Assembly: GCA_021784815.1 (NCBI GenBank)
Contig: JAJYHK010000005.1
Coordinates: forward strand, 25,917 to 89,916
DNA from: a bacterium
GTDB taxonomy: Bacteria > Patescibacteriota > Minisyncoccia > Phycocordibacterales > Phycocordibacteraceae
Direction: 5' to 3'
Length of the DNA: 64,000 nucleotides
In this document: positions 1,084-29,135 of the stretch, one piece after another
Position numbering within the stretch: position 1 is the first letter of the stretch
Layout: each line of letters begins with the position of its first letter
Made by a program: the position numbers and the translations under genes
The notes under the pieces: model-generated
The model's input: the letters and a program-made list of their open reading frames with translations, nothing else
Database searches by the model: none
What the model was told of the DNA's origin: nothing

Positions 1084-1686
1084 ATGGCTTTCACGCACGC
1101 CGTTACATTGTTCATCGAATACCGGTATTGGGCGCTCATCCCGCTTGCCATCATCGAAGGTCCCGTCATTGCTTTTGTTGCGGGAGCGCTCGCGGCCGCA
1201 GGTTATTTCAATATTTTCTTCCTTGGCGTGCTCTTTTTTACACGAGATATGCTTATGGATTCGATGTACTATGCCATAGGGTACTATGGGGCCGACACGC
1301 ATGTGGCAAAACGCATTCTTCGAAAACTCCGGATCCAAAACGAACATTTGCAAGCTGTCCGCGTGCTCTGGGAAAAATATCCGGCTCGTACGATGTTTAT
1401 CGGAAAGATTTCGTATGGGGTAGCATCTTCGTTTATTGTGGTGGCCGGGATTATCAAGATGCGGCTGAGAAAATTTTATGGCTACGGTAGTCTAGTTGCA
1501 ATTCTTCAGTTCTGGACGCTTCTTGCGCTGGGATACTTCTACGGAGCGGCACTTGGAGGCACAATCGTATCCGCACTAAACAATTTTGAGTATGCAATTG
1601 CGGGATTCGGAATTATCCTCGTTGGATACTACTACGTAAGTCTTCGGGCTCGAAAAATAGTTCTTCAAGAGGATGCCGAGCTTTGA
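1084..1686 (+). CDS. DedA/VTT-domain (SNARE-associated) membrane protein
   Basis: Polytopic membrane protein with DedA-like core (ALIPLAIIEGPVIAFVAGALAAAG...). Confidence 0.65.
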   Translation: MAFTHAVTLFIEYRYWALIPLAIIEGPVIAFVAGALAAAGYFNIFFLGVLFFTRDMLMDSMYYAIGYYGADTHVAKRILRKLRIQNEHLQAVRVLWEKYPARTMFIGKISYGVASSFIVVAGIIKMRLRKFYGYGSLVAILQFWTLLALGYFYGAALGGTIVSALNNFEYAIAGFGIILVGYYYVSLRARKIVLQEDAEL

Positions 1687-2173
1687 ATTGAACACCGCTT
1701 TCTCTATTGGACACCCAGGCCGACATGGTACTGGCTTTCGGGCCTTTCGGTGCTGTAACACTTCAGGAGAGCTAGACACCACCCACAGAACCAAACGTAA
1801 ACGATATTCTTGTCTGCAACGTTTTGCTGACAAAGTCACAAGGCCAGCCTATGCTTCTCATCTTAAACCGGACAAATGGAGCGCGTACGACGGCCTCGTT
1901 TTCGACGGATACAAGCATACCCGCATCAATCACTCAAAGCAGTATTCAGACCGCAGAGGCGGGCACGTGAACGGTATCGAGAACTTCTGGAGCTTCGCGA
2001 AAAGGAGGCTCGCGAAATTCAACGGCGTCTCCCGGGAGACGTTCCTTCTGCACCTCAAGGAGTGCGAATTCAGATACAACCACAAAGGCAACGTGCTTGA
2101 AACCCTCTTAGGGTTTGTGCGGCTTAGCGGATATACGTTGAAAATGCTACATAACAGAAAAGGCCAGCAATAG
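1673..2173 (+). mobile_element. IS1595-family transposase, C-terminal fragment only (remnant)
   Basis: C-terminal ~100 aa (YDGLVFDGYKHTRINHSKQY...HVNGIENFWSFAKRRLAKFNGV...FLLHLKECEFRYNH) matches the ISXO2/IS1595 DDE transposase C-terminus; N-terminal two thirds absent; upstream part of ORF is non-homologous junk containing a partial copy of the local repeat family. Confidence 0.6.
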
Positions 2174-2185
2174 ATTTGCTGGCCT
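2161..2185 (+). terminator. Hairpin (AGGCCAGCAA-TAGA-TTTGCTGGCCT) followed by TTTTCT
   Basis: Perfect 10-bp stem immediately after the stop of the transposase fragment, followed by a T-run. Confidence 0.45.
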
Positions 2186-2197
2186 TTTCTGGTGAAC

Positions 2198-2347
2198 ACC
2201 CGGGCCGGTACGGTACTGGTTTTTAGGCCTGTCGGTACTGGTTCCTGGCGTCACAACCGTGTTTGGGAGGACTGGACTATGACCGGCTTTCGTCACCTTG
2301 TATTTCCTCACTATTTTCTTTCTGAACCTTATTCGATTCCTGCGTCC
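2198..2347. repeat. Local repeat family, copy A (core GGCGTCACAACCGTGTT at 2247-2263; T-arm-like ATTCGATTCC at 2331-2340)
   Basis: Shares about 36 nt (gcctgtcggtactggttcctggcgtcacaaccgtgtt) with the tRNA-Met flank at 11915-11966 and the tattttct and ttcgattcc motifs with copies B and D. Confidence 0.5.
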
Positions 2348-2448: not shown

Positions 2449-4272
2449 ATGTGTGGAATCGTTGGCTATATTGGTAAGAAGGACGCAACCCCGTTTTTGA
2501 TTGAAGGATTGCGCGCACTTGAGTATCGTGGCTACGATTCTGCTGGTATATATGTCGCCGGACAAGGCGTCCTGAAACGCGTAGGGAAAGTAGATATGCT
2601 TACCAAGGCAATACCGAAGACGTTTTCTGGAAACGCCGGCATCGCGCACACTCGCTGGGCCACCCACGGCTCCCCAACCGAGGCGAACGCCCATCCTCAC
2701 ACCGACACCGCCGAAGAAGTCCTGCTGGTACACAATGGCATCATCGAAAATTACCACGAGCTACGCAATGAACTCGAGTCCGAAGGGATCATTTTTTACT
2801 CTGACACCGACACCGAAGTTCTCGCCAAGATTATTGGCCAAACGTATACCGCCGACACGTTGCTTGAAGATGCCGTGACGCGCGCACTCGCGCGCGTGCG
2901 CGGAACGTATGGCATCGCGGTCATGTCGAGACGCGAACCGGAAAAGATCGTCGCGACCAGGCTCGGAAGCTCGCTTTTAATCGGCATCGGCACCGACGGG
3001 TACTATATTGCCTCCGATGCGACACCTGTCCTCCCTCACGCGCGCGAAGTGATCTATCTCGACGACGGTGAGATGGCGATCCTCACACTCGAGACTTACG
3101 CCGTCCGGAATGCAATCAAAACACTTGTAGAAAAATCTCCAGAGACTCTCGAGTGGGACGCTGAGTCAGTAAAGAAACAGGGCTACGAGCACTTCATGTT
3201 GAAAGAGATCATGGAAATGCCCGAGGTCATAAAAAATACCCTGCGCGGACGACTTGACCCAGACGAAGGTACATCGATTCTCGGTGGACTACGTGACGTC
3301 ATGCCGAGACTCGCACACATACGCCGCCTCATCATCACCGGCTGTGGCAGCGCGTATTACGCCGGCCTCGTCGGCCAGGAGCTCATCGAAGAATTCTCCG
3401 GTATCCCGGTCGAAGTCGAGATTGCTTCGGAACTACGCTACCGCCGTTTTACTGGAGACCCGGAGCATACCGTCTTGCTCGCGGTCTCGCAGTCGGGCGA
3501 AACCGCTGATACGCTTGAAGCGATTCGTATCGCAAAGCGGCACGGCATGCTTACGCTCGGAATAGTAAACGCAGTCGGTTCTTCAATCGCACGTGAGACC
3601 GACGCCGGAGTATACAACCACGCTGGACCGGAAATCGGAGTCGCGTCGACCAAAGGATTCGTCTCGCAAGTCGCTGTCCTCGCGCTCATCGCGCTTATGT
3701 TCGGACGCCAGCGCAGTCTCTCCGAAAAAGAGGGTCGTGAGCTCGTCGAGGCACTTACGATCCTTCCCGAAAAAGCCGCTGAGATCCTTACCCGGACCGA
3801 CTCCATCGCAGAAGCCGCGCGAAGCTTCACCAGCACGCAAAACGCACTTTACATTGGACGTAAATATCAATGCCCAGTCGCCTACGAAGGCGCGCTGAAA
3901 CTCAAAGAGATTTCGTACATACACGCCGAGGGATATAGCGCAGGTGAAATGAAACATGGGCCAATCGCACTCATTGAACCATCCTTCCCCACAATTGCGA
4001 TCGCCCCGAGAGATTCTCTCTACGAAAAGATCTGCTCAAATATTGAGGAGATTCGTGCTCGAAGTGGCAGAGTCATCGCAATAACCACAGACGGCAATAC
4101 CGGCCTGACCCGCCTCGCCGACCACATTTTCTACGTACCAGAAACTCACGAGGCACTCCTCCCGATTCTTACCACCATCCCGTTGCAACTCTTTGCCTAC
4201 CATGTTGCAAGAGAGCGAGGCCTGCCTATCGACAAACCTCGCAATCTCGCAAAATCAGTGACGGTTGAGTAG
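2449..4272 (+). CDS. glmS: Glutamine--fructose-6-phosphate aminotransferase (isomerising)
   Basis: N-terminal MCGIVGY catalytic Cys2 (Ntn amidotransferase) and two SIS domains; typical 607 aa length. Confidence 0.95.
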   Translation: MCGIVGYIGKKDATPFLIEGLRALEYRGYDSAGIYVAGQGVLKRVGKVDMLTKAIPKTFSGNAGIAHTRWATHGSPTEANAHPHTDTAEEVLLVHNGIIENYHELRNELESEGIIFYSDTDTEVLAKIIGQTYTADTLLEDAVTRALARVRGTYGIAVMSRREPEKIVATRLGSSLLIGIGTDGYYIASDATPVLPHAREVIYLDDGEMAILTLETYAVRNAIKTLVEKSPETLEWDAESVKKQGYEHFMLKEIMEMPEVIKNTLRGRLDPDEGTSILGGLRDVMPRLAHIRRLIITGCGSAYYAGLVGQELIEEFSGIPVEVEIASELRYRRFTGDPEHTVLLAVSQSGETADTLEAIRIAKRHGMLTLGIVNAVGSSIARETDAGVYNHAGPEIGVASTKGFVSQVAVLALIALMFGRQRSLSEKEGRELVEALTILPEKAAEILTRTDSIAEAARSFTSTQNALYIGRKYQCPVAYEGALKLKEISYIHAEGYSAGEMKHGPIALIEPSFPTIAIAPRDSLYEKICSNIEEIRARSGRVIAITTDGNTGLTRLADHIFYVPETHEALLPILTTIPLQLFAYHVARERGLPIDKPRNLAKSVTVE

Positions 4273-4311: not shown

Positions 4312-4349
4312 GCGAGCAAAGCCGCAACATGTGTCGCGGCTTTGCTCGC
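4312..4349. terminator. Strong stem-loop (GCGAGCAAAGCCGC...GCGGCTTTGCTCGC) between glmS and the convergent TraB-like gene
   Basis: 14-bp perfect stem 40 nt after glmS stop; no clear U-tract on either strand, so may act as a bidirectional terminator. Confidence 0.4.
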
Positions 4350-4367
4350 GTGATTCCTATCGGTACC

Positions 4368-4496
4368 GTACTTATTTTTGACGAGCGCCAGTACTTGATA
4401 CAGCGTCACAACCGTGTTGAATTTATTGGACACGAATCAGATTCTGTAGCATTGTATTTTCTTGGTATTTTAGCGAGATTCAGTTCGATTCCTGCA
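4368..4496. repeat. Local repeat family, copy D (core GCGTCACAACCGTGTT at 4403-4418; GTTCGATTCC at 4483-4492)
   Basis: Same core 16-mer, internal tattttct and T-arm-like decamer at the same spacing as copies A and B. Confidence 0.45.
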
Positions 4497-4506
4497 GACG
4501 TATCCA

Positions 4507-5346
4507 CTACTCAGGCAAATTCGCTTGCTCGACCAAAAACCGGAGCGGCAGCTCTTGCTTCACAGCGTGCGCCGAACCGTACACCGCGAACAAACGGTCA
4601 TATTTCTTTAATCCTTCTGCGATCCGCTCAAAAATGTGTTCGTTGCGAAAGGCACTTGAGCTTCGAGAAATTTTGTTAGTAACGCTCTGCGGTTTACCCT
4701 CCCACGGAATCGGATCCACCTTATCGCTATAGAACTGCTCGTCATCGAGCTGGAGACTCTCGATCACTTCCTTACCAAAAGCTGCGAGTTCTGCAGCATC
4801 CCATCCCGCACGTTGAACTAGCCGTTCTGATTCTTGCTCTACGATCCGCTCGCACGCTTTGGGGTCCCGATTCTCGTTATTTCGCTGGTACTGAAGTATG
4901 TCTCGAAACACGTAATAGTCGAAAATATCCCTCTTCGAGAAACCGCTCTCCATAAGGTGCTGGACCTCCATGGCAAATCGCGGTTCAGGCGACTCGAAAT
5001 CAGCTCCTGCGTCTACGGCAAGCTTCAGGGTATAGAAATTCTCGCCCTCCGTTCGCGCGTCCTCGATACTCATATTCTTGAGGCGTTCTCGCCAGCCTTC
5101 TTTGTCCTCGTTAGCCGATTCAATTCCTTCGACGTACACCATCTGCGGATTCGCTTTTTTGAGAGCGGCGGCGATGTCGTCGAGAACTGGGTCGGAGGGA
5201 TTGCCCGTGTGATACGTCCCGAAGTACGCCAGTTCCTTGGGGCCATTCTTTACCTCGAACTCGTAAACTCGCTTTCCCTCCTGACGCGCAAACGGGTGAT
5301 CCTGGTACTGCTCACTCGACAGGATCGCTCCTTTCAGCTCATCCAT
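4507..5346 (-). CDS. TraB/GumN (Tiki-like) family protein
   Basis: GxxH ... E ... GxxH arrangement (FGTYHTG ... VYVEGIES ... YGSAHAV) characteristic of the TraB/PrgY/GumN fold; function unknown. Confidence 0.45.
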   Translation of the reverse strand: MDELKGAILSSEQYQDHPFARQEGKRVYEFEVKNGPKELAYFGTYHTGNPSDPVLDDIAAALKKANPQMVYVEGIESANEDKEGWRERLKNMSIEDARTEGENFYTLKLAVDAGADFESPEPRFAMEVQHLMESGFSKRDIFDYYVFRDILQYQRNNENRDPKACERIVEQESERLVQRAGWDAAELAAFGKEVIESLQLDDEQFYSDKVDPIPWEGKPQSVTNKISRSSSAFRNEHIFERIAEGLKKYDRLFAVYGSAHAVKQELPLRFLVEQANLPE

Positions 5347-5388
5347 GCTGTACCGACGGTCTGGCGAGAAGCCACCGTCTTTATATTG

Positions 5389-5560
5389 CCGCGTATGGAA
5401 ATACGCGGGTTTCTGGATTTTAGGGGCGTCGGAACAGTACCAATTTTGGTGCAGTTCCTGGCGTCACAACCGTGTTGCGGGGGCGGGAATTGACTTCACC
5501 CATCTCCGTCGCGTACTCCCTCAGTATTTTCTGTGGGCATCTGGTTCGATTCCCGCGCCC
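5389..5560. repeat. Local repeat family, copy B: hairpin (5389-5408) + ~70-nt flank repeat + degenerate copy of tRNA-Met 3' end (5461-5495) + inverted T-arm-like GGTTCGATTCCCGCGCC (5543-5560)
   Basis: About 85-90% identical to 11864-11975 (flank and last ~20 nt of the tRNA-Met gene) with one 12-13 nt indel; the tRNA part diverges (GTCAATT instead of the TTCGATT loop), so it is not a functional tRNA. Confidence 0.55.
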
Positions 5561-5853
5561 TCTCCTCAAAATCTAATTAACTAGAAACGTGACGCCCATT
5601 TCTTTTCTATTGGCCTTGCGGTATCAGCAAGTGGCTGGTATATTCATATAAAGGCATGGACGCTGCTGACACAGCCGAGCCGAGGAAAGAAATCCCTGAC
5701 TTGGGAAAGTAGAATCCTCCGGAGAAAGCCCGTAATAGCTTTAATGAGGTCAAGTGCGAGCTTGACGAAGTAAGGTGGCACCGCGACGACATTCGCCCTT
5801 ACAAATCCATCCGAAGTCTTAATTGGTGGATTTGTAAGGGATATTTTATTTAT

Positions 5854-7173
5854 ATGGAAAAAAGATTGCATATTAACGAAATACGGAATCATGTCGGCAA
5901 GGCGGTGACAATCGCAGGTTTTGTTCATATAGTCCGCGACCAAGGGAGCATAAAGTTCCTCATGATTCGAGATATCACCGGGATTATCCAGGTGGTGGTT
6001 ACCAAGCACAAGCCGGAAGCGCTTGAGATAGCAAAGACACTTACCCACGAATCGGTTGTGGAGATTATCGGACTCGCTAAAGAAGAGAAACAAGCTCCTG
6101 GCGGTTTTGAGATTGAAGCAGATCAAATTACAATCCTCTCCCTCGCTGATCCGGAGCTTCCGATACCTATTGTCGAGAAGGGTCAGCAGGAAGAAACTGA
6201 TCAGTCGACCCGGTTGGATTGGAGGTGGCTTGATCTTCGCAAGCCCGAGAAGGCACTTATTTTCAAAGTCTGGACGACGATGGAACAGGCATTCCGCTCG
6301 TACTGCATCAACAGCGGATTTATCGAGATCCATTCCCCTAAGCTAACCGCTACCGCGACCGAGTCCGGCGCTGAACTGTTCGCCGTGAAGTATTTTGACC
6401 AGGAGGCGCGCTTGGCGCAGAGTCCTCAACTGTATAAGCAGATGGCGATGGCAGCTGGCTTCGAGAAGGTCTTTGAGGTGGGTCCAGTATTCCGAGCAAA
6501 CCCGTCTTTCACCTCGAGGCACGATACCGAATTCACCATGTACGACGTTGAGGTGTCTTTCATCAAATCCCATCACGATTTGATGGATGAGGAGGAACGC
6601 ATGGTAGTCGCTATGCTTCAAGCAGTGAAGGAGAAGCACGGAGAGGAGATTGAGAAGCTCTACGGCCGTACCGTAGAAATCCCTAAACTTCCCTTCCCGC
6701 GACTGACGGTAAAAGAGGTTAAGGAAATAACCAGCCGCATGGGCATTCCCGACGAGCGCGATGGCGACATGAGTCCCGAAGAGGAGCGCGCGGTTTCCGA
6801 GCACATTCTGAAAGAAACCGGATCAGAGTTCCTGTTCATTCACGAATTCCCGACTAAGGTGCGCGCGTTCTATAGCATGCGCAAAGAGGACGACCTGGAG
6901 GTGACCAATAGCTTCGACCTTCTCTGGAACGGTCTCGAGATTACGAGTGGCGCTCAGCGCGAGCATCGGTACGAACAACTCAAGAAGCAAATCGAGGAGC
7001 AAGGTCTGGATGTTTCCGGATTCGAATCCTATCTTAATTTCTTCCGTTACGGCTGCCCTCCTCACGGAGGATTTGCTCCGGGACCGACGCGCATGCTCAT
7101 GAAGCTCCTGAATGTTGCGAACGTGCGCGAGGTGACGTATCTCTACCGCGGCGTGAAGCGTCTTACTCCGTAA
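5854..7173 (+). CDS. aspS: Aspartyl-tRNA synthetase, archaeal/eukaryal type (class IIb), paralog 1
   Basis: N-terminal OB fold; class II motifs (FRANPSFTSRHDTEFT, GGFAPGPTRMLM); C-terminus REVTYLYRGVKRLTP like archaeal-type AspRS (...RDRRRLTP); about 439 aa. Confidence 0.75.
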   Translation: MEKRLHINEIRNHVGKAVTIAGFVHIVRDQGSIKFLMIRDITGIIQVVVTKHKPEALEIAKTLTHESVVEIIGLAKEEKQAPGGFEIEADQITILSLADPELPIPIVEKGQQEETDQSTRLDWRWLDLRKPEKALIFKVWTTMEQAFRSYCINSGFIEIHSPKLTATATESGAELFAVKYFDQEARLAQSPQLYKQMAMAAGFEKVFEVGPVFRANPSFTSRHDTEFTMYDVEVSFIKSHHDLMDEEERMVVAMLQAVKEKHGEEIEKLYGRTVEIPKLPFPRLTVKEVKEITSRMGIPDERDGDMSPEEERAVSEHILKETGSEFLFIHEFPTKVRAFYSMRKEDDLEVTNSFDLLWNGLEITSGAQREHRYEQLKKQIEEQGLDVSGFESYLNFFRYGCPPHGGFAPGPTRMLMKLLNVANVREVTYLYRGVKRLTP

Positions 7174-7244
7174 GGTTTGCGTCATTCCTATTCCTATTGT
7201 CTAATAGGCGCTAAAGGGCTATAACTTCAGCAGGTCCCTTACCC

Positions 7245-8285
7245 TTGGAGGCGAGAATGAATACTGTGCCAGTGGCTGACCATTTGCGTCATGCCCTTAA
7301 CCTCAAGCCCCAGGAAGTTGCTCTTCGAAAAGAACTCGATGAATGGCTCCCCGAGGTAATCATCGACTGTCATGCTCATTGCAACCTGGAGGCACATGTA
7401 AAGAATGTGAGCGACTACGCTTACAAGCACATGATGTCGTCTTTCACCTACCTGAGCCTGGAGGACTCGGCGAGGTTGAAGGATCTGTTCTATCCGTTCA
7501 GGAAGGTCAGGTCGCTCCGATTTCCGAAGACATTCCGGGGAATTGATCATCGTGCGGCAAACGAATATTTGCTGAACGAAAGCCCGGAAGACGATCGCAT
7601 CGCCGTGTTCGGCCTGCCGGAAGATTTCGACTACACCGTCGGCATCATGCGGCATCCCCGAGCTTCGGCACTTAAGATGTATTGGTCGTATGTCGATCCT
7701 CCGGCCAAGAAGATATACGATTTCTTCACGCCGGAGATTCTGGAGGAGGCGCAAGCCCTCGACCTGCCAATCATTCTGCATCTTCCGCGAATGATCGTTC
7801 ATACCTGCGACGATCTCATGGCTGTGCTTTCGGACTTTCCTCACCTGAGGGTAGTGCTGGCGCACCTGGGGCTGTCGAAACTCTTGGTCCCGGGTTTGGA
7901 AGAGGCGTACCGGCGAGCCGCGCGTTCTCCGAACGTGTGGCTCGATACGGCGCTGAATCCCTCTCCAGAGGTCGTCTCGCTGGCGCTCGAATGCTTCGGA
8001 CGCGATCGCATCATGTTCGGCTCGGATGAGCCGTTGAACCTGCTGCGATCAGTCGCGTATAAACATCCCGAGAAAGGCGAACGGATCGTCACCGACTATC
8101 AGTACCACTGGGTTGATCCGGTTGAATATGCCGAGTACGGCCACCTTGCGAAGGATGCCGTGCACGCTCAGTGGCAGTGTACGTTGGCTATAAAGAAAGC
8201 GGTCGAGGGCTATCCGCTCGAGGAACAAGAAGGGCTGAAAGCGCTCATCTTCCAGAAGACGGCTGAGCATGTCTTCAGGTTCTGA
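7245..8285 (+). CDS. Amidohydrolase-2 family (TIM-barrel metal-dependent hydrolase)
   Basis: IIDCHAHCN metal-binding HxH start, later HLPR and AHLG...GSDEP motifs typical of PF04909-like amidohydrolases/decarboxylases. Confidence 0.55.
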   Translation: MEARMNTVPVADHLRHALNLKPQEVALRKELDEWLPEVIIDCHAHCNLEAHVKNVSDYAYKHMMSSFTYLSLEDSARLKDLFYPFRKVRSLRFPKTFRGIDHRAANEYLLNESPEDDRIAVFGLPEDFDYTVGIMRHPRASALKMYWSYVDPPAKKIYDFFTPEILEEAQALDLPIILHLPRMIVHTCDDLMAVLSDFPHLRVVLAHLGLSKLLVPGLEEAYRRAARSPNVWLDTALNPSPEVVSLALECFGRDRIMFGSDEPLNLLRSVAYKHPEKGERIVTDYQYHWVDPVEYAEYGHLAKDAVHAQWQCTLAIKKAVEGYPLEEQEGLKALIFQKTAEHVFRF

Positions 8286-8322
8286 ATTGCACGGCGAGCT
8301 GAAACCAGCTCGCCGTGATTTT

Positions 8323-8805
8323 TTATTCTTCCTTTATAAGTTTCGCAAGTGCTGCAAGTTCTTCATCGCTCTCTCGCTTGTAGTCGTGGGAAGAAATATA
8401 CCCCTCGTAAACATCAAAGTATTTTTCGACATCGACTTTCCTTTCTTTCCACTCATCGGCCTTAGTACCATGCATCGGGAACATTTTTGCGTGGAGATGG
8501 TTCACTCCGAACCCTTCAAAAATCACTCCGGTACGCCCCACGTCCTCCAGCTTCGCGTCTAGTAATTTTGCGACCTTACCGGCTGCTAGTACCAGATCGG
8601 TCACGACTTGGTCAGGCAAATCAAAGAGGTAGCTGGGGTGATGGTCTTTCGGAATAACTACGGAAAAACCTTTAGTGTTAGGAAAGATGGAAAGAAACGC
8701 CACATGCTTGTCGTCCTCCCATATTCTGTGTGCAGGTTCTTCGCCCGCCGCAATTTTGCAAAATACGCAATCGTCTTTCCATACCATATCGATTGATTTT
8801 ATCAC
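8323..8805 (-). CDS. HIT-family (histidine triad-like) hydrolase with non-canonical motif
   Basis: N-terminal CVFCKIAAGEEPAH...VIPKDHH matches HIT fold; catalytic region reads NHLHAK (H-x-H-x-K rather than H-x-H-x-H). Confidence 0.65.
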   Translation of the reverse strand: MIKSIDMVWKDDCVFCKIAAGEEPAHRIWEDDKHVAFLSIFPNTKGFSVVIPKDHHPSYLFDLPDQVVTDLVLAAGKVAKLLDAKLEDVGRTGVIFEGFGVNHLHAKMFPMHGTKADEWKERKVDVEKYFDVYEGYISSHDYKRESDEELAALAKLIKEE

Positions 8806-8866
8806 GAGGCTTTTTATATAAAAGAATGGCCCGGAGCATTGCTGCTCCGGGCCACGCCGTATCCCC

Positions 8867-10168
8867 TTACGGGGTCAGGCGATTCGGACCTCGATAGAGG
8901 TACGTGACTTCACGAACCGTACTGCGGTTCAGCAGAATCATGAGCAGCCGGGTGAGACCGACGCCCATACCACCGTGAGGCGGACATCCGTAACGGAAGA
9001 AGCCGAGGTAGTCCTGGATCGTCTCCAAGTCCACACCCTTCTCCTCTGCCTGCTGCTTCAGCCGCTCGTAGCGATGCTCGCGTTGCGCCCCGGTCGTCAC
9101 TTCGAGCCCCTTCCAGAGAAGGTCGAAGCTCTTGGTGATTTCCGGGTTGTCCTCCTGCCGCATGTGGTAGAAGGCACGCACGCTGACCGGGTAGTCCGTG
9201 ACGAACACGAACTCATGCCCGTGCTGCCCGAAGATGTGTCGAGCAAGCATCCGTTCGCCTTCGGGGTCCAGATCCTCCTTGTGGGAGATGATATGGCCCT
9301 GCTGGGCGAGAATCTCGCGCGCTTCCTCGAGGGAAATACGCGGGAACGGAAGTGTCGGCACCGCCACCTTCACGCCGAACGTCTCCTCTATTTCAGAGCC
9401 GTATTCGGTCGAGATGCGAGACAGGACATAGGCCAGCCACGCCTCCTCGATTTTCATGACGTCCTCGTGCGATTCGATCCACGAGACCTCCATATCCACG
9501 GACGTGAATTCCGTGTCGTGGCGGCTCGTGAACGAGGGGTTGGCCCGGAACACCGGACCAATCTCGAAGATCCGATCGAATCCTGCCGCCATCGCCATCT
9601 GCTTGTAGAATTGTGGCGATTGAGCGAGACAGGCCTCCGTATCGAAGTACGGGAGCTTGAACAGCTCCGACCCCGATTCGGTCGCGGCCGGTGTCAGCTT
9701 TGGAGAGTGAATCTCCAGGAAGCCGCGCTCGGCCCAGAATTCCCGCATCGCTTGCTCCATCAAGGTTTGCACCTTGAAAATGAGCAGGTTTTCTGGTCGC
9801 CTGAGCGAGATGTAACGCCAGTCCAGCTGCTTGTCGAGCGCAGAATCGGCCGCGATTGGCAGAGGGGACTCCGCCACGGACGCGATTTGGATATCGGTTG
9901 CCCGAATCTCCAAGCCGCCCAGTTTCACTTTAGGGTCGAGAATGACCTGCCCGGTGACCTGGAGGGCAGAGCCCGACGTGATGCCGGTGAGGAGGCTTGT
10001 GATGGAAGCCGCCCCGTCCGTCTTGTCGTGTGCCACCTGGACGAGTCCAGTGTGGTCCCGGATCGTGAGAAACAGCATGCGCTTTTGATCGCGCACCGTT
10101 TCCACGAATCCCTTTACCGTCACCTCGCCGGTAGCGAGGCTAAGGGCCTTGATGAATGTGCGTTGCAT
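8867..10168 (-). CDS. aspS: Aspartyl-tRNA synthetase, archaeal/eukaryal type (class IIb), paralog 2
   Basis: About 65% identical to the 5854-7173 product over the catalytic core (FLEIHSPKLTPAATESGSELF, FRANPSFTSRHDTEFT, REVTYLYRGPNRLTP); start placed at the internal Met (MQRTFIKA) preceded by GGAGA; ORF track starts 12 codons earlier. Confidence 0.75.
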   Translation of the reverse strand: MQRTFIKALSLATGEVTVKGFVETVRDQKRMLFLTIRDHTGLVQVAHDKTDGAASITSLLTGITSGSALQVTGQVILDPKVKLGGLEIRATDIQIASVAESPLPIAADSALDKQLDWRYISLRRPENLLIFKVQTLMEQAMREFWAERGFLEIHSPKLTPAATESGSELFKLPYFDTEACLAQSPQFYKQMAMAAGFDRIFEIGPVFRANPSFTSRHDTEFTSVDMEVSWIESHEDVMKIEEAWLAYVLSRISTEYGSEIEETFGVKVAVPTLPFPRISLEEAREILAQQGHIISHKEDLDPEGERMLARHIFGQHGHEFVFVTDYPVSVRAFYHMRQEDNPEITKSFDLLWKGLEVTTGAQREHRYERLKQQAEEKGVDLETIQDYLGFFRYGCPPHGGMGVGLTRLLMILLNRSTVREVTYLYRGPNRLTP

Positions 10169-10213
10169 AGTCTTTCTCCGCTTTGACAATTGACGATAGG
10201 ACACATCTGCCGC

Positions 10214-11533
10214 TTAGGGGTAGACCCGGCGACGGAAGATGCGCGGGAACGGGATTGCGTCCCGTACATGTGGAATGTTGAGCATCCAGCGGATCATCCG
10301 CTCGACACCCATTCCGAACGCAGCATGCGGCACACACCCGAGCTGATGGACCTCGCGGACCCATTCATACCGGGGATCGTTACGCTTGTCTTTCTCAGTG
10401 AGACGCTCATCGAGCATCTCGATGTCGTAGATCTTCTCGGCGACGCCGAGAAGCTCGCCCATCCCGTTGCTCGCGATCAGGTCGGCGACGCGCGTGATGC
10501 GCGTGTCGGACGGATCGATGCAATATGGGAAAGGCTCTACGACTCGCGGAATCCCGATGACCCAGAACGGGGTCGAGGGGAAAAGCTCGGAGAGCCTTCT
10601 TTCTTCCGCGCCACCGAGCCCCTTGCCGAACTCGATGTCGAAGCCGTCTTTCTTCAGAAGTTTGACGGCATCTTCATACGAGATACGAGGGAATGGCGTT
10701 CTCATACCATCCAGGCACATTGACGTGTCGAGGACTTGCGCCACGTCGGGGCTTTTCTGCCAGCACGTCTTCGTAACGTGGGAGATGAGCCCCTCGACGA
10801 TCCGAATGATGTCTTCGAGATCAGCGAAAGCGATTTCCGCTTTGATGTGGTGGTACTCCATGAGGTGCCGAGGACTCCGCGACTCCTCGCCGCGGAAACT
10901 CGGTCCCATGTTGTACACGCGCTCGAACGCGTGAACCGCTGCTTCGAGATAGTACCCGACGCATTGGGTCATGAAGATGTGTTCGCCGTTGATTTCGACG
11001 CCCACAGCTGACCCGTCATCGTAGAGCGGGATCGGCGTGAGAATCGGGGCATCGATTTCGAGGAAATGGTTATCCTCGAACCAGCGCCGGACTTCCGACA
11101 TCATGAGGCTCCGGAACTTCAAGATCTCCATGATCTTTGGGTTCCGAAGATACAAATGCCGGTTGGACAGCAGCTGATCGGTCAGCTTGGTATCGAACAC
11201 GTCCACATCGCCCCGCGGCTGCGGGGAGACGGGAATGCTCGCTCTGCTGATGATGCGGATTTCATCGACCGCGATTTCGCGCGGCCGATTGACATGAGAC
11301 ACCACCTTGCCAGAGACTTCGATAGCGGATTCGAGCGGGATATGCCCGATCGCATCGAATTTGTTTTCTCCGACGCGATTTCGCTCGATAACGACCTGGA
11401 TGACGCCGGTCGAGTCCATCACGTCGAGAAAGCAAATGCCGCCGCTGTGCCTTCTTGACCGAAGCCAACAAGGCAGGACGATGTCGACCCCGGCTCGCCG
11501 TTCGAGCAGGTCGGAAACGTACACACTTTTCAT
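10214..11533 (-). CDS. asnS: Asparaginyl-tRNA synthetase-like class IIb aaRS (divergent)
   Basis: OB-fold N-terminus; motif 2 SFRGEESRSPRHLMEYHHIKAE; motif 3/C-terminus GFGMGVERMIRWMLNIPHVRDAIPFPR typical of AsnRS; start placed at Met of MKSVYVSD preceded by GGAGA (track ORF extends 38 codons further). Confidence 0.65.
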   Translation of the reverse strand: MKSVYVSDLLERRAGVDIVLPCWLRSRRHSGGICFLDVMDSTGVIQVVIERNRVGENKFDAIGHIPLESAIEVSGKVVSHVNRPREIAVDEIRIISRASIPVSPQPRGDVDVFDTKLTDQLLSNRHLYLRNPKIMEILKFRSLMMSEVRRWFEDNHFLEIDAPILTPIPLYDDGSAVGVEINGEHIFMTQCVGYYLEAAVHAFERVYNMGPSFRGEESRSPRHLMEYHHIKAEIAFADLEDIIRIVEGLISHVTKTCWQKSPDVAQVLDTSMCLDGMRTPFPRISYEDAVKLLKKDGFDIEFGKGLGGAEERRLSELFPSTPFWVIGIPRVVEPFPYCIDPSDTRITRVADLIASNGMGELLGVAEKIYDIEMLDERLTEKDKRNDPRYEWVREVHQLGCVPHAAFGMGVERMIRWMLNIPHVRDAIPFPRIFRRRVYP

Positions 11534-11859
11534 CACTAATCTCCTTCCACGAGACAGTAGGACGTTGGTTGACAGTGGAGAGGCTTTCGCAGTCGTTCGT
11601 GAGTTGTCAAAGAACTCGTACGAAATACCAAATTTATAATATAACAAATCACCTTATTTGTACAGTGCATGTTCAGTGCTGGGTATTCTTACGCCCATAC
11701 GAGGGCAGGAATACAGAACCGGCGTATTTGCTTGGCTGTACAGTTCGATTCCTACGCCCGTGCTCAAAATCGGGGGAATTCGAGTGTGACTGCGACACAA
11801 AACCGCACCGAGTACGAGAATAGGAATCGAACTAGCTATTTATTGTATTTGCTACATAG

Positions 11860-11966
11860 CCCAAAAACCCGCGCATGGAAATACGCGGGTTTTTGGGCTT
11901 TTAGGGGCGCCGGAACAGTACCAATTTTGATGCCTGTCGGTACTGGTTCCTGGCGTCACAACCGTG
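11860..11966. repeat. Local repeat family, copy C (3' trailer of tRNA-Met): hairpin CCCAAAAACCCGCG/CGCGGGTTTTTGGG (11860-11897) + flank repeat + core GCGTCACAACCGTGTT (11954-11969)
   Basis: Direct-repeat partner of 5389-5485; the hairpin is flanked by T-runs on plus and A-runs read as U on minus, so it can act as a bidirectional intrinsic terminator. Confidence 0.55.
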
Positions 11967-12037
11967 TTGCGGGGGTGGGAATCGAACCCACGCCTGGAGG
12001 TTATGGGCCTCCCGAGCTACCTCTGCTCTACCCCGCT
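11967..12037 (-). tRNA. tRNA-Met (anticodon CAU), probably initiator-type; CCA not encoded
   Basis: Cloverleaf: acceptor AGCGGGG/CCCCGCA with A1.A72 mismatch, D-stem GAGC/GCTC (A11:U24), anticodon stem GGAGG/CCTCC, loop CCCAUAA, T-arm GTGGG-TTCGATT-CCCAC, discriminator A; followed by CAC not CCA. Confidence 0.85.
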
Positions 12038-28442: not shown

Positions 28443-28531
28443 GGAGGGGTCGCATAGTGGCCTAGTGCGGCGGTTTGCTAAATCGCTATACGGGTAAAAC
28501 CGTATCGAGGGTTCGAATCCCTCCCCCTCCG
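28443..28531 (+). tRNA. tRNA-Ser (anticodon GCU); CCA not encoded
   Basis: Acceptor GGAGGGG/CCCCTCC, anticodon stem GCGGT/ATCGC with loop UUGCUAA, long variable arm hairpin ATACGG-GTAAAA-CCGTAT, T-arm GAGGG-TTCGAAT-CCCTC, discriminator G; followed by CCC. Confidence 0.9.
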
Positions 28532-28556
28532 CCCGAATTCCCCTTGTGTTTTCTTA

Positions 28557-28880
28557 TTATTTTTCGTACTGCGTTTGAACGGTTCCCCACGGGTTCTCCA
28601 AAACCACTGAACCACCATTACTCGGAGCTAGAGTGTTCACCGCCGCCCGGAGATTCCCAGGCGCTACGTGCGAGTACCGCATCGTCATGGTGATGGTCGA
28701 GTGCCCGAGTAATTCCTGTACAACGCGGATCGGAATGCCATTGACCGCGAGATGCGAAGCAAACGTATGTCGCAGTGTATGCCATCCGAAACGCCTCAGC
28801 CCTGCCTTTTTCTGAGCGCGGTGGAGGCGCTGAAGCAGTAGATTCCCCGTAAAGGGACGCTGCTGTTCGTTTTTGAACAC
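28557..28880 (-). pseudogene. Tyrosine recombinase/phage integrase, C-terminal catalytic fragment only
   Basis: LRHTFASHLAVNGIPIRVVQELLGHSTITMTMRYSHV contains the conserved H-x-x-R and catalytic Tyr of the integrase box II; only about 107 aa; ends 26 nt from tRNA-Ser. Confidence 0.7.
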
Positions 28881-29135
28881 ATACCCCAGTTGGGAAATGA
28901 AGTCATCGGCTCGCCCGCTATGCGGGCTCGCCAGCCGTTTTTCGCCGAAAATTCAAGCCGTTTTGAATTCAGAATAAACCTTCCACACCATCGATCCACT
29001 AAGCGGTGCGCGTCAACTTTCCGGGGTAGTGCTACTGAACGACATGAGCATAGAGTTTGGTAAGTGGTACATCGAGATACGACGGCCCTAAACCAAGCTC
29101 AAGTGACTTGAGGCGTGACCCTTAGGGGTTGCGCC

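Follow-up and report, generated by a model that had tools for sequence, protein, structure and literature searches.

The subject of this work is the 3' end of a tRNA-Met gene, together with the repeated DNA that follows it, in a patescibacterial genome of the Minisyncoccia (assembly GCA_021784815.1). The locus lies in a stretch of 64,000 nt, here called the window (contig JAJYHK010000005.1, positions 25,917 to 89,916). Its closest described counterparts are the islands accumulated at tRNA genes, the staphylococcal cassette chromosome (SCC), integron arrays and dif-type modules. The accretion concept, established for streptococcal integrative and conjugative elements, deals with tandem, att-flanked remnants devoid of integrase, the cis-mobilizable elements (CIMEs), at the 3' end of a tRNA gene. 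SCC elements reside at the 3' end of rlmH/orfX in staphylococci; they use the large serine recombinase Ccr, and form tandem SCC as well as ccr-less pseudo-SCC bounded by direct repeats. The dif/pdif modules and the arrays of integrative mobile elements exploiting Xer (IMEX) are moved by the host XerCD.

With tRNA-site islands and CIMEs, the locus of the window shares an intact tRNA gene at one end, partial 3'-end direct repeats at the block boundaries and tandem blocks without integrase. It differs by the lack of a tyrosine integrase in the arrays scanned, by 100-330 nt of non-tRNA sequence conserved across species, by housekeeping operons among the cargo, and by the length of tRNA kept in the repeats, which ranges from 0 to ~25 nt. 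The boundary tRNA and the far 3'-end repeat of a tyrosine-integrase island are present, while its integrase gene and foreign cargo are not. The likeness to SCC lies in the insertion at the 3' end of a conserved intact gene, in tandem elements parted by direct repeats of that gene end (four copies here, 2-4 in many relatives), in the many elements lacking a recombinase, and in a large serine recombinase encoded in some relatives. Departures from SCC are the use of a tRNA gene as anchor, the far greater length of the repeats, with their hairpins and terminator, and a link to the recombinase that is positional only. Like an integron array (attI/attC), the locus extends in one direction from a fixed anchor, and a partly palindromic site with a short conserved core stands after each of its blocks. 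However, no IntI-type integrase stands at the anchor, the multi-gene blocks occupy both strands and bring their own regulators (a T-box), the site is 150-450 nt long and tRNA-derived, and the integron succession of IntI, attI and co-oriented promoterless cassettes is not observed. Finally, dif/pdif modules and IMEX are also recombinase-less modules bounded by conserved sites, some of them inverted, that accumulate at one chromosomal site, but no dif-like 28-bp XerC/XerD site is evident here and the anchor is again a tRNA. By analogy, the putative hotspot can be likened to tRNA-linked tandem islands or to SCC-like composite islands, with a long lineage-wide site and a housekeeping cargo as its unusual traits.

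A preliminary description of the window, drawn from its letters alone, had reported two att-like direct repeats derived from the 3' end of tRNA-Met and its trailer. The pair is real. Global alignment of 5389-5493 with 11869-11985 matches 98 of 105 aligned columns (93%), with one gap of 1 nt and one of 11 nt, and the local alignment score of 142 is far above that of shuffled sequences (18.7 +/- 2.4, maximum 33). A repeat finder returns the same pair as two segments, 5407-5452/11888-11933 (87%) and 5454-5493/11946-11985 (95%). The common stretch comprises the last 20 nt of the tRNA (11966-11985), which recur at 5470-5493, and ~100 nt of trailer, including a 19-bp hairpin placed between an A run and a T run (11858-11899) that forms a terminator-like site. 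The repeats are thus direct and originate from the tRNA end and its trailer, as proposed; the coordinates given earlier hold, and the identity of 85-90% is right or slightly low. No integrase is encoded between the repeats according to Pfam: they enclose only a block of aminoacyl-tRNA synthetase (aaRS), amidohydrolase and HIT genes. The tRNA-Met itself is probably of the initiator type, in view of its A1/A72 mismatch.

This pair is part of a larger set. Alignment and profile search identify four co-oriented copies of the unit, termed c1 (~2187-2345), c2 (~4330-4500), c3 (5389-5575) and c4 (11650-11965, adjoining the real tRNA), and the profile search finds none in the other 52 kb of the window (12-64 kb). 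The 17-mer GCGTCACAACCGTGTTG occurs four times on one strand, at 2248 (with one mismatch), 4403, 5461 and 11953, as against 0.19 occurrences expected. The order along the array is an IS1595 transposase remnant, c1, glmS, c2, a truncated TraB-like gene, c3, the 6-kb aaRS block, and c4 with the tRNA-Met, beyond which follow the genes of a 201-aa protein, GatA, GatC, LigA and pilus proteins. The terminator of c4 is an inverted repeat (I6) with 19-nt arms that are 95% complementary, and its distal part harbors a direct piece resembling the tRNA-Met 3' half (11810-11834), an inverted one (11742-11765) and a tail hairpin (11683-11714). Copy c3 lacks 11 nt of the hairpin region, present in the core of c1, and its terminator is cut right after the stem. 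The segments 5544-5573 and 11742-11771 are also homologous (repeats D11, I10) and bracket the aaRS block as another direct repeat, inside the first. The exact motif GTTCGATTCC is present at five sites of the window, within the range 4483-11987. One of these is the real T-arm; the others are degenerate versions of the 3' half of tRNA-Met, one direct (11810-11834) and three inverted (4483, 5544 and 11743); a further inverted site, with 1 mismatch, lies at 2331. The possibility that such T-arm-like pieces on the plus strand are missed tRNA genes was rejected, because they fold into neither an acceptor nor a T stem; they correspond to the 3' half of tRNA-Met in inverted orientation.

The unit is spread over a whole lineage. 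Exact matches to a 19-mer from the start of the trailer (in the c4 core) were found in 59 stretches from GTDB species representatives and 113 from metagenomes, 172 altogether (cited below, as are other contigs, by numbers prefixed with L). All those bearing a label belong to Patescibacteria: Kaiserbacteria, Paceibacterota, Parcubacteria and Minisyncoccia. The same 19-mer has no match in IMG/VR, and there is thus no sign of a phage attP. Read in the direction of the tRNA, the module comprises, in order, the tRNA 3' end, the invariant 30-mer AACACGGTTGTGACGCCAGGAACCAGTACCG, a hairpin that varies in sequence from copy to copy while its pairing is kept, and a bidirectional terminator with a differing stem. 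Many copies continue with TATGTAGCAAATACAACATATTTCC-AGTTCGATTCC...TCTCGTA, ~50 nt, GAGCAGGGGCGC-GGAATCGAACTGG and a tail hairpin. Over ~300 nt, this non-coding module is 86-92% identical between species, as compared to 72-78% for neighbouring genes.

Polarity and position are equally constant. Within each stretch the copies share one orientation, which holds for all ~80 profile hits in the 59 GTDB stretches and for the 163 copies in the 113 metagenome stretches. Relatives often carry 2-4 copies: in the metagenome set, 38 of the 113 stretches have at least two, and 29 of the 163 copies directly follow a tRNA-Met found by ARAGORN. Wherever this program detects a tRNA-Met near copies, these lie downstream, in the orientation of the tRNA; the statement covers those stretches, many others having no detected tRNA-Met. 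Upstream of the tRNA, the order pilins-LigA-GatC-GatA-~192-aa protein is kept in ~30 species. Downstream, the genes are unrelated, with 132 Pfam families among 147 array-side open reading frames (ORFs); glycolytic enzymes, aaRS, DpnI and NUDIX are examples of this variety. The preliminary description had named, as the observation that would undo its proposal, a unit lying beside many unrelated loci without relation to tRNA-Met; the neighbours are indeed diverse, yet the copies keep one polarity downstream of the detected tRNA-Met. The large contigs sampled (243-993 kb) contain at most one cluster of exact 19-mer matches each, which, together with the single orientation and the lack of any copy at 12-64 kb of the window, does not correspond to a dispersed repeat of the miniature inverted-repeat transposable element or repetitive extragenic palindrome kind.

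Three side observations concern the surroundings of the unit. Another conserved non-coding sequence (...CCATACCGGCCCCCAT...AAGGGGGAAGGAAGG...GGGTACAGTACCG) is found ~170 nt before the unit in L043, L056, L063, L021, L055 and others; it stands where the tRNA fragment would be, before some secondary copies, and has no Rfam match. The LOOT RNA (RF03000) matches L056 at 6392-6510, not adjacent to unit copies, and L038 at 4011-4133. Fragments of the tRNA-Met 5' end also exist, since a 17-nt duplicate of it (AGCGGGGTAGAGGAGAG) is present ~70 nt upstream of the gene (L171, 2200-2330; L143, 5808-5938).

The repeat pair belongs to a co-oriented four-copy array of a lineage-wide module. The preferred reading, of roughly even confidence, is that this module signals a hotspot for recombination where an initiator-type tRNA-Met gene has its 3' end. 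The module comprises the tRNA-Met 3' end and 100-330 nt of conserved downstream DNA, that is, the 30-mer, the hairpin, the bidirectional terminator and the tRNA-half-like inverted repeats. We infer that blocks of DNA may be inserted or exchanged by crossing-over, in Campbell fashion, within the invariant core formed by the tRNA 3' end and the 30-mer. With the crossover in this core, the tRNA would remain intact and each event would add a partial copy of tRNA end and trailer beyond the block. The latest event in the window would have placed the 6-kb aaRS block between c4 and c3, and later illegitimate deletions would have trimmed c3 and the TraB-like gene. The enzyme involved could be a large serine recombinase acting in trans; alternatively, the 50-105-nt identical core could support plain homologous recombination, or the exchange could stem from repair triggered by an endonuclease. 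The idea of site-specific integration at a tRNA gene is partly retained. Recombination at this gene fits the wider pattern, with 172 stretches, co-oriented copies, many of them directly after tRNA-Met, and a serine recombinase in ~12% of loci; a single attL/attR pair does not fit the four copies. The features of the window are collected in Table 1.

Table 1. Features of the tRNA-Met array and of its blocks, in window coordinates
Feature	Position	Strand	Evidence and details
IS1595-family transposase remnant	1673..2173	+	C-terminal part only; Pfam PF12762; NCBIfam NF033547 72.2 bits, below the 75-bit cut-off
c1	2158..2345	-	Terminator hairpin 2158-2188; core 2187-2263; degenerate tRNA end; inverted tRNA-half-like piece ~2331-2345
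glmS	2449..4272	+	Between c1 and c2; Pfam, NCBIfam glmS 768 bits
c2	4314..4500	-	Terminator hairpin 4314-4347; core 4347-4419, without tRNA piece; inverted tRNA-half-like piece 4483-4500
TraB/GumN-like gene	4507..5388	-	5'-truncated; ORF 5346->4507 (279 aa) and 14 more recognisable codons to 5388
c3 trailer copy and last ~20 nt of tRNA-Met	5389..5493	-	Distal repeat of the preliminary description; profile match 5414-5476
c3 left arm	5494..5575	+	Inverted tRNA-Met 3'-half-like piece 5543-5566, then CTCAAAATC
Block between repeats	5649..11646	both	Rfam, Pfam, NCBIfam
T-box leader	5648-5803	+	Rfam 47.8 bits, E = 2.8e-8, below the gathering score of 93; very short Stem I
AspRS(Asn), first	5854-7173	+	Non-discriminating
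Amidohydrolase	7245-8285	+	
HIT protein gene	8323-8805	-	
AspRS(Asn), second	8867-10204	-	Non-discriminating
Divergent AsnRS-like gene	10214-11647	-	Below NCBIfam cut-offs
c4 distal conserved non-coding part	11650..11857	-	Inverted repeat I5; exact GTTCGATTCC sites
c4 hairpin and terminator	11858..11937	-	Hairpin of variable sequence (~11901-11937), then bidirectional intrinsic terminator (11858-11899)
c4 core	11938..11968	-	~30 nt, invariant, immediately following the tRNA; read with the tRNA, AACACGGTTGTGACGCCAGGAACCAGTACCG
tRNA-Met(CAT)	11966..12037	-	72 nt, without encoded CCA; ARAGORN, Rfam tRNA 58.1 bits

The kinship of the copies was examined in the 116 nt of the trailer that vary. A copy finds its best match in another species (80-97% identity), copies within one genome being 50-77% identical. 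Copy c4 shares 96% identity with a secondary copy, that of WY4.bin53 (L060), which itself has a c3-type left arm. The tRNA-adjacent trailer of WY4 is a different variant and matches the trailers next to the tRNA in other species at 95%. With its c3-type arm and c4-type trailer, the WY4.bin53 secondary copy is the junction expected between tandem insertions. The trailers of L031_1271 and L062_2957 are likewise 97% identical, and trailer identity shows no correlation with GatA identity (rho = 0.02, 190 pairs), reaching 0.95 for trailers and at most 0.78 for GatA. The blocks between copies are unrelated to one another. Judged from these alignments, the kinship fits insertion next to the tRNA, pushing the old trailer outward, and not fixed paralogous positions. 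The segmental duplication that had been offered as an alternative is unlikely as a recent event, since the nearest relatives of a copy lie outside its own genome, in other species.

A local tandem duplication could instead be old: as in loci with several initiator tRNA copies, tRNA-Met and its trailer would have been duplicated, the extra tRNA bodies would have decayed, genes would have been shuffled in, and the trailers would have been kept as terminators or processing signals. Copies that are co-oriented, confined to one locus and, within a genome, as divergent as 50-77% identity implies are in line with such a history, as are the housekeeping genes of the modules and the working-looking bidirectional terminator of the trailer, which serves neighbouring convergent genes. 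This origin is nevertheless considered unlikely: the variants hold no fixed position, one and the same variant adjoining the tRNA in one species and being secondary in another, as illustrated by the WY4 and L031_1271 matches, trailers are up to 95% identical where GatA is ~72% identical, without correlation, and the flanking genes are unrelated between species.

The block enclosed by c3 and c4 had been viewed as a possible degraded island. Its content does not support a foreign origin. It encodes three class II aaRS paralogues and is located next to gatCA in this genome. The two aspartyl-tRNA synthetase (AspRS) genes are 53% identical, inverted relative to each other and both above the NCBIfam equivalog cut-off; the third gene is related to asparaginyl-tRNA synthetase (AsnRS). 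Homologues of the first AspRS are 67-94% identical, and all those with an organism name are from Paceibacterota/Patescibacteria. The block is collinear over ~6.0 kb with loci of two sister genomes, at 85% nucleotide identity with L069 and 78% with L068, where the T-box is kept with compensatory changes in its stems. The loop CUGACA of this T-box probably presents GAC as an Asp specifier. In L068 and L069, the block is flanked by a methyltransferase gene on one side and by unrelated DNA on the other, with neither unit copy nor tRNA; the comparison concerns the block locus of these genomes. Carrying the AspRS and T-box typical of the lineage, the block is one of its native components, and the location between two unit copies is derived here, as the block exists without unit or tRNA flanks in both sister genomes. 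A block of UBA6033 (L032) was considered as the same aaRS island and rejected, since it contains a gene resembling lysyl-tRNA synthetase and ATP-grasp-like genes (identified by eye). Exact-protein look-ups return no record for the AsnRS-like protein or for the 201-aa protein. A T-box in a bacterium of the candidate phyla radiation (CPR) may deserve separate attention.

The genes at the edges of the copies bear traces of breakage. The closest homologues of the TraB-like gene are 454-461 aa long and 59-89% identical. The ORF corresponds to residues 180-455 of homologue P0002 (BLASTP), and tblastn extends the homology from residue 166, that is, window position 5388. This position is the outer edge of c3, and the homology begins exactly there; the N-terminal 165 codons are found nowhere in the window. 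The gene is truncated at this point and the c3 terminator breaks off behind its stem, which makes the junction of c3 with the TraB-like gene a breakpoint and not a native succession of trailer and gene. The TraB-like genes of relatives, inspected with their contigs, do not adjoin a tRNA-Met. An empty site consisting of tRNA-Met followed by the TraB-like gene, as predicted earlier, is therefore not ancestral. At the other end of the array, the last codons of the IS1595 remnant enter the distal part of c1, where the direct tRNA-half-like piece would otherwise lie.

The strong conservation of the unit raises the question of its function as a selected cis-element, either a structured RNA antisense to the tRNA or a protein-binding or insulator site combined with a bidirectional terminator. 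Kept at operon boundaries, it would be homogenised by gene conversion or transfer, the tRNA piece hitch-hiking. The invariant 30-mer, the ~300 nt of non-coding DNA at 86-92% identity beside genes at 72-78%, the recurrent GTAC-containing motifs and the preservation of the hairpin by differing sequences are all consistent with selection. The hairpin after the 30-mer is also more stable in the antisense orientation in 62 of 71 copies, although the z-scores are modest (-1.74 vs -1.15). The structural signal is otherwise faint. The 13-bp inverted repeat CCAGTTCGATTCC/GGAATCGAACTGG is near-invariant, most of its pairs being unchanged in 18/18 sequences, with almost no covariation. RNAalifold applied to both strands returns only a near-invariant inverted repeat of 12 pairs and small hairpins; the covariation term is ~-0.6 kcal/mol, 2-5 pairs show compensatory change, and Rfam gives no match on the unit at either E-value or gathering thresholds. 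Moreover, a general boundary element should be dispersed, whereas the unit occurs at one locus only in the window and in the large contigs sampled, and the partial tRNA ends would be left unexplained. A cis-element is for these reasons quite unlikely to be the explanation of the array.

If the array is the product of a recombination hotspot, candidate enzymes are to be sought among relatives. Cluster C8 groups large serine recombinases with Resolvase, Recombinase and Zn ribbon domains. It is present in 7 GTDB loci and 14 of the 113 metagenome loci, that is, ~12% of related loci; the metagenome matches are 68-100% identical, ten near-full-length ones being 79-100% identical. The gene invariably runs antisense to the tRNA; in the loci mapped, a unit copy precedes it at a distance of 0.1-3.5 kb. 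The C8 loci have only the recombinase gene in common, and its link with the repeat is positional. Tyrosine integrases are not detected in the arrays: among the 147 array-side ORFs, Phage_integrase does not reach a count of at least 2, and a regex scan finds none. Elsewhere in the window, a C-terminal tyrosine integrase fragment (28560-28952, minus strand; Pfam Phage_integrase E = 1.9e-20, profile positions 91-169 of 172) stands directly after a tRNA-Ser (28443-28533, plus strand), and is probably the vestige of a second, degraded tRNA-linked island. A literature search on CPR islands and serine recombinases returned nothing relevant.

Homing endonucleases and introns are encountered at the same boundary. 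In L123 (7699-7947) and L177, a GIY-YIG gene (82 aa, Pfam E = 2e-16) is inserted exactly between the tRNA-Met 3' end and the 30-mer, its stop codon falling within the latter; the insertion is absent from L176, which is 99.9% identical to L123/L177. It is one case of the smaller insertions at the tRNA/30-mer boundary, each accompanied by a short duplication of the tRNA end. More distant GIY-YIG ORFs are located just upstream of a unit copy in L016 (5576-5806, between tRNA-Met and copy) and L179 (1072-1308). Group I introns recognised by Rfam lie beside a unit copy in L023 (1853-2083) and L063 (6544-6746), and in L023 and ~10 other stretches the tRNA-Met match stops at the anticodon; ARAGORN misses the tRNA-Met in those relatives because the gene carries a group I intron. 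In four loci, a LAGLIDADG-like ORF (cluster C18, recognised by eye) accompanies the tRNA 3' part. These observations invite a scenario in which free-standing homing endonucleases, GIY-YIG or the LAGLIDADG of the tRNA intron, cut at or near the tRNA/30-mer boundary, and adjacent blocks are exchanged when the break is repaired from foreign DNA, for which the tRNA and the unit copies provide the homology. Besides the GIY-YIG polymorphism and the introns, breakpoints at the end of the identical core agree with it. However, GIY-YIG genes are rare (5/172 stretches) and absent from the window, and break repair alone makes no extra partial tRNA copies, which renders double-strand-break exchange very unlikely as the full account.

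Breakpoints can be followed in closely related contigs. L036/L077 and L150 are 100% identical over 2.6-2.7 kb upstream and diverge immediately after ...CCAGTACCG, while L171 equals L143 to the left and L096 to the right of the tRNA and 30-mer; contigs that diverge right after the 30-mer (L036/L077 vs L150; L143/L096/L171) are 99.96-100% identical upstream. The tRNA-Met and 30-mer, ~105 nt in all, are identical in different co-occurring populations, which makes them a likely place for chimeric joins in metagenome assemblies, and the partner switches at the core may be real recombination or assembly chimeras. Among the GTDB representatives no insertion polymorphism is found, because all are different species (~72-78% identical).

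The same caution applies to the window. Logan contigs (SRR13178631) reproduce its segments: L006 and L001 on the left, L070 over ~5455-11961, and L066 on the tRNA side. Those retrieved all end inside the 30-mer, so that each segment is confirmed but the order of linkage is not, and a graph at k = 31 equally allows tRNA, c3 trailer and TraB-like gene in succession, plus a circular block. Exact-protein look-ups of GatA and GT2 yield only contigs that break at the repeat. An artefact, in which the copies or their order result from strains or species mis-joined at the common k-mer, could also be suspected from the GC content, ~0.53 to the left of the tRNA and ~0.59 to the right. It is hardly credible as an explanation of the array, because the exact repeat is only 30 nt long and shorter than a read, each copy has a unique junction sequence within a contig, both graph linkages still hold two trailer copies, and multi-copy arrays occur in dozens of independent assemblies.

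Several points weigh against a recombination hotspot at the tRNA-Met and account for the restraint with which it is put forward. No recombinase is encoded in the array of the window, as judged by Pfam and by a regex and tblastn scan, and serine integrases neither need nor create long repeats. The stretch of tRNA kept by the copies varies, which one fixed crossover point would not predict. The aaRS block is not a self-contained element, with no att-like flanks in the sister genomes, and the blocks carry genes of housekeeping type (glmS, the lineage AspRS with its T-box) instead of typical island cargo. The genes truncated at unit edges, TraB-like and IS1595 remnant, point to illegitimate events. 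Some of the recombinant metagenome contigs may be chimeras, given the ~105 nt that co-occurring species have in common. Lastly, neither an empty site nor a circular junction is found by the IMG/VR 19-mer scan or by the metagenome scan for the c3-type junction, which gives no match in a collection from which the population of the window is itself absent.

A bolder extension of the hotspot can be considered, in which the initiator tRNA gene of Paceibacteria serves as anchor for a gene-capture platform. The ~30-nt core and the tRNA-half-like inverted repeats would then constitute a portable recombination site, on which a trans-acting large serine recombinase or endonuclease-triggered repair would build one-directional, recombinase-less arrays, housekeeping operons included. 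Such a platform is considered unlikely. The CPR/Patescibacteria have tiny genomes, and gene acquisition and reshuffling in this group are poorly understood. A conserved recombination site at the initiator tRNA, present in well over 100 genomes and bracketing very diverse blocks, would be a testable route for gene flow or rearrangement in these bacteria; the gene-capture platform, if true, would represent a system akin to integrons or SCC and so far undescribed in CPR bacteria.

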